64,000 nt of DNA from Steroidobacteraceae bacterium (GTDB lineage: Bacteria; Pseudomonadota; Gammaproteobacteria; Steroidobacterales; Steroidobacteraceae). The stretch covers positions 518-64,517 of the forward strand of contig DATEJG010000126.1 of the NCBI GenBank assembly GCA_035278165.1, given 5' to 3'. The translations under genes and the position numbers were made by a program. The notes beneath the pieces were generated by a model, which was given only the letters and a program-made list of their open reading frames with translations, did not search any database and had not been told where the DNA came from. Shown piece by piece: positions 2,212 through 6,437 of this stretch (position 1 is its first letter; each line of letters opens with the position of its first letter).

Positions 2212-2233
2212 GCCCTACATATATATGTGGGGC
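2212..2233. promoter_or_regulatory. Candidate operator palindrome upstream of DoxX gene
   Basis: GCCCTACATATATATGTGGGGC is a 22-bp inverted repeat with one mismatched pair and an AT-rich core, in a GC-rich context. Confidence 0.45.
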
Positions 2234-2271
2234 CAAACTCGCGGCCGGATCATTGCGACAGCGGGGCGGCC

Positions 2272-2742
2272 ATGTCGAACAACAATCTCGCCAGCTTCTA
2301 CGCGCGCCTGGCACAGCTGCTGAACCTGCTGCAGGCGCCATTCGCGCTGCTCGTGCGGATCTACGTCAGCTGGGTGTTCCTGAAGTCGGGCTGGCTCAAG
2401 ATCAGCGACTGGGGTCAGACACTGGGATTGTTCGAGTCCGAGTACCGCGTGCCGCTGCTGCCGCCGCATGCGGCAGCCGTCGCCGGCACTGCGGGCGAGC
2501 TGGTGTTCTCCGTGCTCGTGATCATCGGGCTGTGGGGACGATTGAGTGCGATCGGCCTGTTCGCCGTCAACGCGCTCGCAGTCATCTCGTACGCACACGT
2601 GCTGTTCCAGGAAGGCTTCGAGGCCGCCATCGGCCAGCACTACCTCTGGGGCTTCATGCTGCTGGTAATCGTCGTCTACGGGCCGGGAGCGTGGTCGCTC
2701 GACGGAGTGCTCGCGAGGCGCGTCACGCGCGGTTCTTATTGA
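2272..2742 (+). CDS. DoxX family membrane protein
   Basis: LLVRIYVSWVFLKSGWLKISDW, GTAGELVFSVLVIIGLWGRLSAIGL, YGPGAWSLD; about 4 TM segments. Confidence 0.85.
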   Translation: MSNNNLASFYARLAQLLNLLQAPFALLVRIYVSWVFLKSGWLKISDWGQTLGLFESEYRVPLLPPHAAAVAGTAGELVFSVLVIIGLWGRLSAIGLFAVNALAVISYAHVLFQEGFEAAIGQHYLWGFMLLVIVVYGPGAWSLDGVLARRVTRGSY

Positions 2743-2977
2743 CGATCGCCGCGAGGATCAGCAGGTACGAGAACAGCCGCACCGTGTAGATCAGCGGATT
2801 GCCCTCGTTGGGATGATCGAGGAACAGGAACGCAAGGCGGTTGACGCCCTCGATCGCGAACGCGGCGGCGAACAGCAGGAACAGCTTGTCGTGCGTCTGC
2901 CGCCAGAATTTCAGGAAGAACGCGCTCGCCACGAGCGAGGCGGTCACGATCACACCGAGCAGGAATCCTTCGAACAT
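2723..2977 (-). CDS. Small 3-TM membrane protein, DUF5985-like
   Basis: 84 aa; FFLKFWRQTHDKLFLLFAAAF...YTVRLFSYLLILAAIVNKNR pattern; tightly spaced with upstream genes. Confidence 0.75.
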   Translation of the reverse strand: MFEGFLLGVIVTASLVASAFFLKFWRQTHDKLFLLFAAAFAIEGVNRLAFLFLDHPNEGNPLIYTVRLFSYLLILAAIVNKNRA

Positions 2978-2980
2978 GCG

Positions 2981-3241
2981 TCAATCGCTCTCGAATATCA
3001 GCCCGTAGAGCAGCAACAGCATCGAGCCTGCGGCAATCGCGAGCCTCCAGGTATACAGGCTGATCTCCGCCGGCACGACGGCCAGGTCGAAGAACAGCAC
3101 TGCGTTCGAAACCGCCAGCCCGGCGAAGCACAAGCCGCTCCACAGCAGCAGGCGCTGCCGCACTCGCGCATAGCCGCGCAGCAGCAGGAAGGCACATAAG
3201 CCGGCCATTAGCGTGCCCAGTGCATTGACGATGGCAAGCAT
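2981..3241 (-). CDS. Small 3-TM membrane protein, DUF5985-like (second paralog)
   Basis: 86 aa; CAFLLLRGYARVRQRLLLWSGLCFAGLA...LLLLYGLIFESD pattern. Confidence 0.75.
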   Translation of the reverse strand: MLAIVNALGTLMAGLCAFLLLRGYARVRQRLLLWSGLCFAGLAVSNAVLFFDLAVVPAEISLYTWRLAIAAGSMLLLLYGLIFESD

Positions 3242-3245
3242 CGGT

Positions 3246-3635
3246 TCACCTGTCTTTCTTCAGATCGAACGCGCGTGCGAACTCGCGCACCGCGGTCGAG
3301 GCGCGAGAGTGAATGAACGTTGCAAGCTGGACAAGATGGCGGCTGTAAGCCGATGCGACTTCCGGCATCACCTCGCCGCTCGGATCCCACTGCGGGTTGT
3401 ACCGATACTGCGCGCCCTGCGCGGGCTCGGTCACGACGAGCTGTTGTCGCTGCAGCGCCTGCAGGATCTGCGCCGCGACCGCGCGCGAGACGTAGATGCG
3501 TGCCGCGACATGCTCATCGGACCAGGACCGCTGCGGGTTCTCCCACAGCAGCAGCAAGGCCTCCAGCTGCGGCACCGTATCGATGCGCTCTGCGAGGAAT
3601 TGCAGAACGCGTGCTGGGATATCCGGTGACGTCAT
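3246..3635 (-). CDS. Conserved hypothetical protein with probable winged HTH
   Basis: 129 aa; LEALLLL..WSDEHVAARIYVSRAVAAQILQALQRQQLV (HTH-like), a wing ending YRY, C-terminal VREFARAFDLKK. Confidence 0.7.
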   Translation of the reverse strand: MTSPDIPARVLQFLAERIDTVPQLEALLLLWENPQRSWSDEHVAARIYVSRAVAAQILQALQRQQLVVTEPAQGAQYRYNPQWDPSGEVMPEVASAYSRHLVQLATFIHSRASTAVREFARAFDLKKDR

Positions 3636-3764
3636 CGTCGCATCGATACGGTCTTCTCATGCGGCGCGCGCACCTGTGCACCGCTCGTGAGCGTGACGTT
3701 TTACTATAGGCGCCTGTCGCGAGTCGAGGCTGCCGGGACATTTCGGGTTCGGAAGCGCATACGA

Positions 3765-6437
3765 ATGACAACGAAGCTCGCCGAGCGCGCACGACTCGCG
3801 CGCTGCACGCCGCACGATCCCGCGTGGAAAAAGTGGGGCCCGTATCTCAGCGAGCGCCAGTGGGGCACCGTGCGCGAGGACTACAGCGCGAACGGCGACG
3901 TTTGGGGCTACTTTCCGCACGATCACGCGCGCAGCCGCGCGTACCGCTGGGGCGAGGACGGGCTCGCGGGCTTCTGCGACCACGAGCAGCGGCTGTGCCT
4001 GTCGCTGGCGCTGTGGAACGGCCGCGATCCGATCCTGAAGGAGCGGCTGTTCGGGCTCACCAACAGCGAGGGCAATCACGGCGAAGACGTCAAGGAGCTG
4101 TACTACTACCTCGACGCCACGCCGGCGCACTCGTATCTCAAGATGCTCTACAAGTATCCGCAGCGCGAGTATCCGTACGCCGCGCTCGTCGCGGAGAACG
4201 AGCGTCGCACGCGCGAGCAGACGGAGTACGAGCTGCTGGATACCGGCGTGTTCGCCGAGAACCGCTACTTCGACGTGTTCGTGGAGTACGCGCAGAACGA
4301 CATCGACGACGTGCTGATGCGTGTCACCGTGCACAACCGCGGGCCGGAGCGCGCAACGCTGCACGTGCTGCCGCAGCTGTTTTTCCGTAACACATGGAGT
4401 TGGCGCAACGGCGCAGCGAAGCCGCGCCTGTCGATGCAGGACGGGCACGTGCTCGTACATCACGACGTGCTCGGCGAATACCACTGGTACTCATGCGGCA
4501 CGCACGACGCCGACGTCCTGTTCACGGACAACGAGACCAACACGCAGCGTCTCTACGACATTGCGAACGCGGGCTACGTCAAAGACGCATTCCATGAGCG
4601 CGTCGTGCACGAGCGCATCGACGCGACCAATCCCGCGCAAACCGGTACGAAGGTCGCCGCGTGGTATCGCCTCGACGTGCCGGCCGGCGGCTCGGCGGAG
4701 ATCCGCACGCGACTTTCGAAGCAGCCGCAGCTGCAGCCGTTTGCGGAGCTCGCGGCAACGTTCGCCGCGCGCGTGCGCGAAGCGGATGAGTTCTACGAGG
4801 ACGTTCAGCACGATCTGCCCGACGCCGATCGGCGCCTGGTGCAGCGCCAGGCGTTCGCGGGAATGATCTGGAGCAAGCAGTTCTTCCACTTCGACGTGCC
4901 GCAGTGGCTGAAGGGCGACGAGACGCAGGTCGCGCCGCCGGCGAGCCGCAAGCACGGCCGCAACTGGGAATGGGAGCACCTCAACAATGCCGACATCATC
5001 TCGATGCCGGACAAGTGGGAGTACCCGTGGTACGCGTCATGGGATCTCGCGTTCCACACGCTGCCGCTGGCGCTGCTCGACGCCGAGTTCGCCAAGGAGC
5101 AGCTCGTGCTGCTGACGCGCGAGTGGTACATGCATCCGAACGGCCAGATTCCCGCGTACGAGTGGGCGTTCGGCGACGTGAATCCGCCGGTGCACGCGTG
5201 GGCGACCTGGCGCGTGTTCCAGATCGACCGCAAGCAGCGCGGCGACGACGGCGACCTGAAGTTCCTCGAGCGCGTGTTCCACAAGCTGCTGCTGAACTTC
5301 ACCTGGTGGGTGAATCGCAAGGACGCCGAAGGCCGCAACGTGTTCCAGGGCGGCTTTCTCGGGCTCGACAACATCGGTGTGTTCGATCGCAGCTCGACGC
5401 TGCCGAGCGGCGATCGCCTCGACCAGGCGGACGGCACCAGCTGGATGGCGATGTATGCGCTGAACCTGATGCGCATCGCGCTCGAGCTCGCCCGGCACAA
5501 CGACGTCTACGAGGACGTGGCCACCAAGTTCTTCGAGCACTTCCTGCACATCGCCGAGGCGATCAGCACCTTCGGCGAGGGCGACGTCGGGCTCTGGGAC
5601 GACGCGGACAAGTTCTTCTACGACGTGCTGCGCACGCCGGACGGCCGCAACACGCCGCTCAAGGTGCGCTCGATGATCGGGCTGATCCCGCTGTTCGCGG
5701 TCGAGACGCTCGAGCCCGAGCTGCTGGAGCGCGTGCCGGAATTCGCGGCGCGCCTCGAATGGTTTCTCAACTACCGGCCCGATCTCGCGCAGCTGGTCTC
5801 GCACTGGGATCAGCCGGGCCGCGGCAGGCGCCGCCTGCTGTCGCTGCTGCGCGGCCATCGCATGAAGAAGCTGCTGGTGCGCATGCTCGATCCGGCCGAG
5901 TTCCTCTCCGACTTCGGCGTGCGCGCGCTGTCCAAAGTGCACCAGCGCGAGCCGTACGTGCTGCGGGTGAACGGCTGCGATCTCACGGTGCGCTACGTCT
6001 CGGCGGAATCGGACTCGCCGCTGTTCGGCGGCAACTCCAACTGGCGCGGCCCGATCTGGTTCCCGGTGAACTTCCTGATCATCGAGTCGCTGCAGCGCTT
6101 CCATCACTACTACGGCGACGATTTCCTGGTCGAGTGCCCGACCGGCTCCGGCCAGCTGCGCACTCTCAACCAGATCGCCGACGAGCTCGCGACGCGCCTG
6201 GAACGCTTGTTTCTACGGGACGAGCGCGGGCTGCGGCCGGTGCACGGCCAGTATCCGCAGCAGCAGCGCGATCCGCATTTCCGCGACTACGTGCTCTTCT
6301 ACGAATACTTCTGCGGCGATACAGGTCGCGGCGTCGGCGCCGGACACCAGACCGGCTGGACGGGCCTGGTCGCGAAGCTGCTGAAACCGCGTGAAGCAGC
6401 TCACGGTGACCGCCGGCGCGCGCGACGCGGCGACTGA
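3765..6437 (+). CDS. MGH1-like glycoside hydrolase (GH63-like glucosidase)
   Basis: WKKWGPYLSERQWGTVREDYS, SMPDKWEYPWYASWDLAFH, GFLGLDNIG, NSNWRGPIWFP, GAGHQTGWT. Confidence 0.88.
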   Translation: MTTKLAERARLARCTPHDPAWKKWGPYLSERQWGTVREDYSANGDVWGYFPHDHARSRAYRWGEDGLAGFCDHEQRLCLSLALWNGRDPILKERLFGLTNSEGNHGEDVKELYYYLDATPAHSYLKMLYKYPQREYPYAALVAENERRTREQTEYELLDTGVFAENRYFDVFVEYAQNDIDDVLMRVTVHNRGPERATLHVLPQLFFRNTWSWRNGAAKPRLSMQDGHVLVHHDVLGEYHWYSCGTHDADVLFTDNETNTQRLYDIANAGYVKDAFHERVVHERIDATNPAQTGTKVAAWYRLDVPAGGSAEIRTRLSKQPQLQPFAELAATFAARVREADEFYEDVQHDLPDADRRLVQRQAFAGMIWSKQFFHFDVPQWLKGDETQVAPPASRKHGRNWEWEHLNNADIISMPDKWEYPWYASWDLAFHTLPLALLDAEFAKEQLVLLTREWYMHPNGQIPAYEWAFGDVNPPVHAWATWRVFQIDRKQRGDDGDLKFLERVFHKLLLNFTWWVNRKDAEGRNVFQGGFLGLDNIGVFDRSSTLPSGDRLDQADGTSWMAMYALNLMRIALELARHNDVYEDVATKFFEHFLHIAEAISTFGEGDVGLWDDADKFFYDVLRTPDGRNTPLKVRSMIGLIPLFAVETLEPELLERVPEFAARLEWFLNYRPDLAQLVSHWDQPGRGRRRLLSLLRGHRMKKLLVRMLDPAEFLSDFGVRALSKVHQREPYVLRVNGCDLTVRYVSAESDSPLFGGNSNWRGPIWFPVNFLIIESLQRFHHYYGDDFLVECPTGSGQLRTLNQIADELATRLERLFLRDERGLRPVHGQYPQQQRDPHFRDYVLFYEYFCGDTGRGVGAGHQTGWTGLVAKLLKPREAAHGDRRRARRGD

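Follow-up and report, generated by a model that had tools for sequence, protein, structure and literature searches.

We analysed a stretch of 64,000 nucleotides from a Steroidobacteraceae bacterium (assembly GCA_035278165.1, contig DATEJG010000126.1, positions 518 to 64,517 of the forward strand), hereafter the window, in which three short genes, W, A and B, follow one another in this order on the minus strand (Table 1). A first-pass annotation, made from the letters of the DNA, had described three short same-strand genes 4 and 3 bp apart, the first encoding a soluble protein with a helix-turn-helix (HTH), a wing and a conserved-looking C-terminal tail (AVREFARAFDLKK), and the other two encoding paralogous proteins of about 85 amino acids (aa), each with three hydrophobic helices and a basic loop after the first transmembrane helix (TM1). 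The open reading frame (ORF) listing and the sequence agree with this layout. All three genes start with ATG, the intergenic gaps are 4 nt between W and A and 3 nt between A and B, and the Shine-Dalgarno-like sequences AGGTGA and GAGAG sit inside the end of the preceding gene. W ends AAG AAA GAC AGG TGA, whose AGGTGA precedes the ATG of A by four bases; the stop codon of A is followed by CGC and then by the ATG of B, and A and B share a reading frame. The closest relatives are Steroidobacteraceae metagenome-assembled genomes (MAGs), and the DNA sequencing runs that contain the stretch are soil and rhizosphere metagenomes, which makes a soil-dwelling member of this gammaproteobacterial family the most likely source; a search for co-transcription evidence returned no RNA runs containing it. 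The copy in the window is a typical family member without any special feature of its own.

Table 1. The W-A-B operon and its surrounding genes, in positions of the window.
Feature	Position	Strand	Description	Basis
W	3246..3635	-	129 aa, first gene of the trio; predicted divergent MarR-fold winged-helix protein	ORF listing
A	2981..3241	-	86 aa, three transmembrane helices; DUF5985 subfamily A	ORF listing, Pfam
B	2723..2977	-	84 aa, three transmembrane helices; DUF5985 subfamily B	ORF listing, Pfam
C-terminal helix of W	3249..3314	-	residues 108-129 (IHSRASTAVREFARAFDLKKDR), conserved, basic and predicted amphipathic	alignment, charge, AlphaFold2
Promoter-like motif	3691..3710	-	CCTATAGTAAAACGTCACGC, with TATAGT as the -10 candidate	recurrence upstream of W in relatives
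DoxX/HvfX-like gene	2227-2742	+	membrane protein	Pfam DoxX 2.9e-14; NCBIfam HvfX family 3e-11, below cut-off
GH63 / mannosylglycerate-hydrolase-like gene	3687-6437, likelier start ATG 3765	+	glycoside hydrolase, ~890-916 aa	PF22422 3.8e-23, PF03200 2.5e-7
Two ORFs resembling the ergothioneine genes egtB and egtD	42-1187, 1087-2172 (second start probably near 1200)	+		sequence reading; PF10017 Methyltransf_33 on the syntenic L001 gene

W, A and B form an invariant, autonomous and obligate operon. Scanning species-representative genomes with B as the anchor gave at least 590 stretches, of which the best 80 loci were kept, and a metagenome scan anchored on a distant B subfamily, 35-48% identical to the B of the window, gave another 80 loci; metagenome loci with at least 700 nt upstream of B (n=55) were taken as informative. 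W-A-B lies on one strand and in the same order in 80/80 genome loci, and both A and W are found upstream of B in 55/55 informative metagenome loci. The arrangement is kept, overall, in 135/135 informative loci, including those with a B less than 50% identical to that of the window, which goes far beyond chance and answers the gene-neighbourhood check that had been proposed. The genome loci span Steroidobacteraceae, other Gammaproteobacteria, Acidobacteriota (Terriglobia, Bryobacterales and "Acidiferrales"), one Bdellovibrionales MAG and one "Aquilonibacter" MAG. Two of the 80 (L029 and L040), both in MFD assemblies, carry frameshifts in W or A.

The junctions within the trio favour coupled translation, since most neighbouring genes overlap or lie 1 nt apart: W and A are separated by 1 nt in 37 loci of the genome set and by -1 nt in 13, and A and B are joined by a 4-nt ATGA overlap in 43. 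The 148 immediate flanking genes fall into 131 Pfam families, the largest neighbour cluster covers 23/80 loci, and the co-directional neighbours are mutually unrelated (MscS, TatD, trehalose phosphatase, fucosidase, sulfotransferase, CcsA, class IV aminotransferase, LpxI, DUF520). Because the flanking genes are not conserved and W is in many loci preceded by a -10-like box of its own, the trio is best described as a self-contained transcription unit that moves as a block. A conserved functional neighbour other than kinases was sought and rejected, the small recurrent groups (DUF520 in 6 loci, URO-D in 5, and MscS, TatD, TPM, CutA1 and CcsA in 4 each) probably being local synteny. In the Acidobacteriota loci L024, L031, L035, L039, L040 and L041 the next gene after B on its strand, 12-121 nt away, is the DUF520 (YajQ-like) gene, which is probably lineage synteny; YajQ-type proteins bind nucleotides or second messengers.

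In the window, the promoter-like motif CCTATAGTAAAACGTCACGC is placed 55 nt upstream of the start codon of W. The 20-mer, or variants of it with a TAGTAAAAC core, recurs upstream of W in the Steroidobacteraceae relatives L004-L008 and also in L009 and in L023, the locus of the cultured Peristeroidobacter soli JW-3, and k-mer enrichment found TAGTAAAA in 8 upstream regions versus 0.5 in controls. We infer that this motif is the putative promoter of the W operon. Its distance from the gene varies, and in L004, L007 and L008 it ends 2 nt before the ATG, a spacing that resembles that of a leaderless transcript or one with a very short leader. A defence or phage origin of the trio was rejected, having no support from PADLOC, where the sole match was a weak one to the winged HTH model PDC-M05A (E 0.0048), or from PHROG, where no match was credible. 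NCBIfam adds nothing for W, A or B.

W is without a family model of its own. Its scores are sub-threshold for Rrf2 (19.7 bits), MarR_2 (18.5 bits) and MarR (15.4 bits), the gathering cut-offs being 27 bits for MarR_2 (PF12802) and 24.6 bits for MarR (PF01047), and among 77 W homologues MarR and MarR_2 are matched at E ≤ 0.01 by 17 and 19, respectively. Homologues of W itself number 503, the top 120 of which are at least 79% identical. AlphaFold2, given a 77-sequence alignment, produced a model with a predicted local distance difference test (pLDDT) of 87.3 and a predicted template modelling score (pTM) of 0.79, in which helices a1 (8-17), a2 (21-32), a3 (40-47) and a4 (51-63) are followed by a beta-hairpin wing (67-79) and by helices a5 (89-99) and a6 (101-124). 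A Foldseek search with this model placed MarR-family structures on top (E 1.5e-4, TM-score about 0.5). The prediction shows a compact MarR-like winged-helix fold, in agreement with the soluble HTH and wing protein of the first-pass annotation. MarR regulators of known structure (HcaR 3k0l, ZitR 5yhx, PefR 7dvu, AdcR 5jls, MepR 3eco and OhrR 2pfb) have the same a1-a2-a3-a4-wing-a5-a6 order, and OhrR in addition gives a weak sequence match over residues 16-72 of W. Unlike these regulators, W falls below the Pfam thresholds, is shorter (129 aa), has an HTH and wing that are net acidic, is most conserved in its basic amphipathic C-terminal helix, and is always translationally linked to two membrane proteins.

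Among 129 homologues, conservation in W is concentrated in helix a2 (motif IDSVPHLEALLLLW) and in the C-terminal stretch, so that the tail noticed at first sight is indeed one of the two most conserved parts of the protein. This stretch reads IHSKA..VR.FARAFRL.KD, and over 77 sequences H109, F119, A120, A122 and F123 are invariant and R117 and R121 at least 90% conserved; the recognition helix is variable except at core positions. The mean net charge is -0.9 for the HTH plus wing, -0.2 for the recognition helix and -0.5 for the wing. It is +3.3 for the last 22 residues, which make up a strongly amphipathic helix (hydrophobic moment about 0.8). Within an otherwise confident model the last two 10-residue blocks have pLDDT values of 61 and then 56, as expected of a segment that becomes ordered on a partner or on a membrane.

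MarR proteins bind palindromic operator DNA as homodimers; in MarR-DNA complexes the DNA-contacting recognition helix and wing are basic, and a wing Arg is conserved. W has neither the basic recognition helix nor the conserved wing Arg of that family: HTH and wing positions that are basic in at least 50% of sequences are limited to 36 (0.67) and 64 (0.57), with none in the wing at 65-82, the yardstick for typical MarR wings being established knowledge and not a scored MarR control set. DNA binding by W appears doubtful, given an HTH and wing whose charge is acidic to neutral and in which basic residues are not conserved. W had been proposed to be a DNA-binding or adaptor protein; the winged-helix fold behind that proposal stands, and the DNA-binding role is the part put in question.

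A and B are both full-length members of PF19447 (DUF5985), a Pfam model that itself carries no function. Their scores, 75.7 and 78.3 bits, exceed the cut-off of 27.3, subfamily hidden Markov models give E 1.7e-38 for A and 4e-38 for B, and all 150 scanned relatives match the same family. A search with the A and B profile against 1.84 billion representative proteins (E ≤ 1e-3) matched 1,164 protein clusters at 50% identity, nearly all of 80-125 aa; 28 of the best 150 matches are A-like and 121 are B-like. A and B are about 22% identical to each other, and pairwise BLASTP between them detected nothing. Since their identity is this low and their relatedness is visible only through the family profile, they are old paralogs and not the product of a recent duplication, a qualification to be attached to the term paralogous as it was first applied to them. 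DUF5985 consists of two old subfamilies, A and B, always paired A-then-B behind a MarR-like gene.

The conservation profile reads LLLRGY.R.R.RLLLWSGLCF...WRL...YGLIWE.E for A (146 sequences) and FFLRFWR.TRD.LF..FA.AF...NR...Y.VRL...LIL.AI..KNR for B (151 sequences). Its main peak extends from the end of TM1 through loop 1 and across TM2 (A LLLR.Y.R.R.RLLLWSGLCF.GLA.SN; B LFFLRFWR.TRD.LFL.FA.AF..EG.NR), a second peak covers the predicted cytoplasmic C-terminal ends (A YGLIWE.E; B AI..KNR), and a smaller group of conserved residues is found where TM2 and TM3 reach their outer ends (N46, D52, Y63 and R66 in A; R47, Y64 and R67 in B). Pfam, the sequence and Lys plus Arg counts concur with the original description of each protein as having three hydrophobic stretches and a basic loop after TM1. 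Averaged over about 150 sequences each, the Lys plus Arg count is 3.8 in loop 1 of A, 3.5 in loop 1 of B and 3.2 at the C-terminus of B; the N-termini and loop 2 of both proteins are acidic, and Lys/Arg and Asp/Glu are nearly absent from the transmembrane segments. From this charge distribution both A and B are predicted to have the N-terminus outside and the C-terminus inside (N-out/C-in), which is compatible with a parallel dimer.

AlphaFold2 was used on single chains, and A-B was modelled as an artificial read-through fusion from locus L087, where A is followed in frame by a stop codon, 18 codons and then B. With the TGA read as Gly this gives a 189-residue chain with a 19-residue linker, which was folded with an alignment of 27 further read-through pairs together with 122 rows of A or B left unpaired. 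The model, of moderate confidence, has six helices, three long ones in each half, and a disordered linker (pLDDT 80.1, pTM 0.62). It is compatible with a compact six-helix bundle, the relative orientation of the two halves not being given by the model. Proteins of 150-230 aa with two DUF5985 matches (P0136, P0158, P0173, P0181, P0190 and P0238 in the library) were considered as natural A-B fusions, and thus as Rosetta-stone evidence, and were rejected: they hold out-of-frame junk at the TM3 of A and look like A then B joined by frameshift artefacts. Gene calls in frameshifted assemblies can mimic domain fusions in this way.

No solved structure related by sequence to the B profile was found. 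The comparison with MASE-type sensor domains suggested in the first-pass annotation led nowhere, as MASE3 (PF17159) scores 20.4 bits on B, over the last three helices of the model, against a cut-off of 31, and is matched at E ≤ 0.01 by 8/150 relatives, all sub-threshold; homology of DUF5985 to MASE3 was rejected on these grounds. Weak matches were also seen between A and the haloarchaeal DUF7521, which has three transmembrane helices (E 0.17), and between W and the haloarchaeal DUF7342 (E 0.048); an archaeal counterpart of the module could exist if DUF7342 and DUF7521 genes are neighbours in Haloarchaea.

Clustering of the flanking ORFs gave a single sizeable group, that of the 23/80 genome loci mentioned above, and by Pfam it contains two kinds of kinase. 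The first are giant hybrid kinases with about 10 HAMP matches followed by GAF, HisKA, HATPase_c and REC; the second, in L011, L013 and L030, is a REC-HisKA-HATPase-REC kinase that ends 6-12 nt before the start of W. When the trio loci were searched by phmmer with the poly-HAMP part of the kinase as query, such a kinase was found beside the trio in 20/80 genome loci and 9/80 metagenome loci (29/160), and in 4/15 of the metagenome loci of at least 6 kb; this amounts to about a fifth of sampled loci and about a quarter of those with long flanks. The kinase and the trio occur in at least four arrangements: the kinase may lie 150-700 bp upstream of W in divergent orientation; 190-370 bp downstream of B in the same direction; in one upstream operon in which a poly-HAMP kinase and a REC-histidine kinase (HK)-REC kinase precede W-A-B; or upstream with one gene between. 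Adjacency is present in two phyla and in both B subfamilies, which are less than 50% identical to each other. A Kyte-Doolittle scan shows no hydrophobic segment in the adjacent poly-HAMP kinases, which carry a HAMP-like motif right at their start. No poly-HAMP match is present anywhere in the 64-kb window, so the description of the module as kinase-free is right for this window and wrong for the family. In L001/L006, the closest relative, a different GAF-GAF kinase and a sigma-54 activator are convergent with the trio.

The kinases next to the trio share the architecture of AskA and AskB, a soluble array of about 10 HAMP matches followed by GAF, HisKA, HATPase and REC, and the succession of a poly-HAMP kinase and a REC-HK-REC kinase in L011, L013 and L030 is much like that of askB and askC in Myxococcus xanthus. 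AskA and AskB of M. xanthus are soluble kinases related to the fungal group III kinases (Nik1/Os-1), the hybrid kinase gene askC lies directly after askB, and the membrane osmosensor that feeds the Ask kinases could not be identified (PMC7643160). Poly-HAMP arrays typically have no upstream input domain (PMC13446029). The published Ask system includes no small membrane proteins and no MarR-like partner.

Taken as a whole, the trio may encode a signalling complex, small and membrane-associated, with W docked on a core of A and B, a reading that we put forward tentatively, as a serious possibility that stops short of being probable. A and B would pair side by side and in parallel to give a six-helix core, whose conserved surface would be cytoplasmic and combine the C-terminal ends with the stretch from the end of TM1 through the basic loop 1 to the start of TM2. 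W would be held on the cytoplasmic face and on the inner membrane leaflet by its near-invariant basic amphipathic C-terminal helix. The polar residues at the outer ends of TM2 and TM3 listed above may sense a small ligand or the state of the membrane or envelope, and what is sensed would alter how W is held. W would then relay the signal, either as a released MarR-type DNA binder or as an adaptor for soluble partners; the adaptor role fits W better because its HTH and wing are acidic and variable. Where one is adjacent, the AskA-type poly-HAMP hybrid kinase would be the partner. No kinase adjoins the trio in this window, so any partner or target would lie elsewhere.

Several observations weigh against such a complex. 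The A-B and W-A/B contacts are putative, and a pTM of 0.62 on an artificial fusion is weak support for A-B pairing, with a parallel arrangement not readable from that single-chain model; a Foldseek search with it gave nothing significant (best E 0.07, the matches being generic 7-TM and CDF bundles). Any membrane protein normally has basic loops on the cytoplasmic side, and the likeness to MASE3 is too weak to link DUF5985 with any known sensor domain. The conserved C-terminal helix of W could be the dimerisation helix a6 of MarR proteins, its conservation then being explicable without a membrane partner. Upstream of W, k-mer enrichment found no operator-like motif conserved across lineages, only lineage-specific promoter-like boxes. 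About three quarters of the loci, this window among them, have no kinase nearby. Lastly, a trio downstream of askBC in M. xanthus is excluded: the annotation of MXAN_6732, which is the second gene after askC, is that of a class II aldolase in a unit of one gene (PMC9765219), and because at most one gene fits between askC and MXAN_6732 the askBC locus is without the trio.

These last two points count equally against a more specific proposal, which we regard as unlikely, that W-A-B is the missing membrane input device and anchor of the soluble AskA-type poly-HAMP hybrid kinases and their phosphorelays. An A/B heterodimer, as the sole membrane part, would read membrane or osmotic state, and W would serve as the adaptor handing this state to the N-terminal end of the kinase rod or to the receiver domains; where no kinase is adjacent, the trio would act on a distant kinase encoded elsewhere or directly on transcription. 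The 29 loci that have such a kinase within a few hundred bp, in several arrangements, argue for this proposal, as does the spread of the link over two phyla and two B subfamilies, although some of these loci come from related species, so that independent events number fewer than 29, and the background frequency of such kinases is an estimate and not a measured value. Also in its favour, the adjacent kinases start directly with a HAMP-like motif and have no hydrophobic segment, an input domain is typically absent from poly-HAMP arrays, and the Ask membrane osmosensor was not found (PMC13446029, PMC7643160). The concept of a separate membrane sensor polypeptide feeding a HAMP protein is shared with sensory rhodopsin II and HtrII, the latter being discussed in PMC13446029. 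HtrII has two transmembrane helices of its own that contact the rhodopsin, whereas the kinases adjacent to the trio are soluble, so a soluble adaptor, here W, would be needed. Rhodopsin/HtrII and the trio have no relationship in sequence or fold.

We consider it quite unlikely that the trio is a MarR-regulated mini-transporter or channel, with A and B forming a heteromeric pore or exporter (compare paired SMR proteins and the SemiSWEET dimer) and W acting as a substrate-released repressor of its own operon. A marR-like gene heading a membrane-protein operon is the classic layout of marRAB, emrRAB and mepRAB. W-A-B follows this layout, with a predicted MarR-like fold in W and, in many loci, its own -10-like box upstream; W itself, however, has the acidic to neutral HTH and wing without a conserved basic wing residue, and it would be unusual for a regulator to be tied so strictly, by 1-nt junctions or overlaps, to its structural genes in all lineages. 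SemiSWEETs are proteins of about 85-90 aa with three transmembrane helices and N-out/C-in topology that form parallel 3+3-helix dimers. A and B share with these PQ-loop proteins their size, helix count and predicted topology, are likewise small and paired, and have conserved polar residues within TM2 and TM3, but their conservation is strongest on the predicted cytoplasmic face and not along a putative pore. No Pfam match to MtN3_slv/PQ-loop, SMR or any transporter family was obtained, and neither SWEET nor SemiSWEET was among the top 50 Foldseek matches, none of which was significant, on which grounds a SemiSWEET-like transporter was rejected. Soluble kinases as recurrent neighbours would also be unexpected if A and B formed a pump.

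A structural or housekeeping membrane role without signalling, for example in a membrane-integrity or lipid-handling complex with W as a peripheral subunit reusing a winged-helix scaffold, is highly improbable: the trio is autonomous, apparently single-copy per locus and found among housekeeping genes such as URO-D, TatD, CcsA, LpxI and DUF520, the surface charge of W is not DNA-like and its basic amphipathic tail would resemble membrane-targeting helices, but winged-helix MarR folds are overwhelmingly regulatory, the kinase adjacency points to signalling, and no enzyme or lipid-binding domain is present in the trio.

Around the trio in the window, the DoxX/HvfX-like gene converges on B and overlaps its 3' end by 20 nt (2723-2742). 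It starts 55 nt past the stop codon of the preceding plus-strand ORF, the second of two that look like egtB and egtD. In L001 the DoxX counterpart is the last gene of a bufferin-type operon (BufA1, MbnB, HvfC, DoxX) after an EgtD-like gene; because DoxX directly follows the probable egtD here, the BufA1/MbnB/HvfC genes, the GAF kinase and the sigma-54 regulator of L001 are absent from this locus. The GH63-like gene is divergent from W, and L001 has a similar one at a distance of a few kb from its trio, which is probably local synteny. Enzymes of the GH63 type act on compatible solutes, a loose fit with the MscS and trehalose phosphatase neighbours seen at other loci.

A full-text literature search for DUF5985 and PF19447 found no papers, in line with the opening assessment that no characterised function was known for this cassette. 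DUF5985 was already catalogued; what is described here is the architecture of the trio, which is widespread and unstudied. The trio is common, with a B relative in at least 590 genome stretches and more than 1,100 protein clusters, and its architecture is invariant in every locus checked. Its recurrent adjacency to soluble kinases makes it a concrete candidate to fill an acknowledged gap, the input of the poly-HAMP kinases. If W-A-B is a signalling complex, it would link the state of the membrane to a winged-helix protein in a compact way, with no kinase domain of its own.

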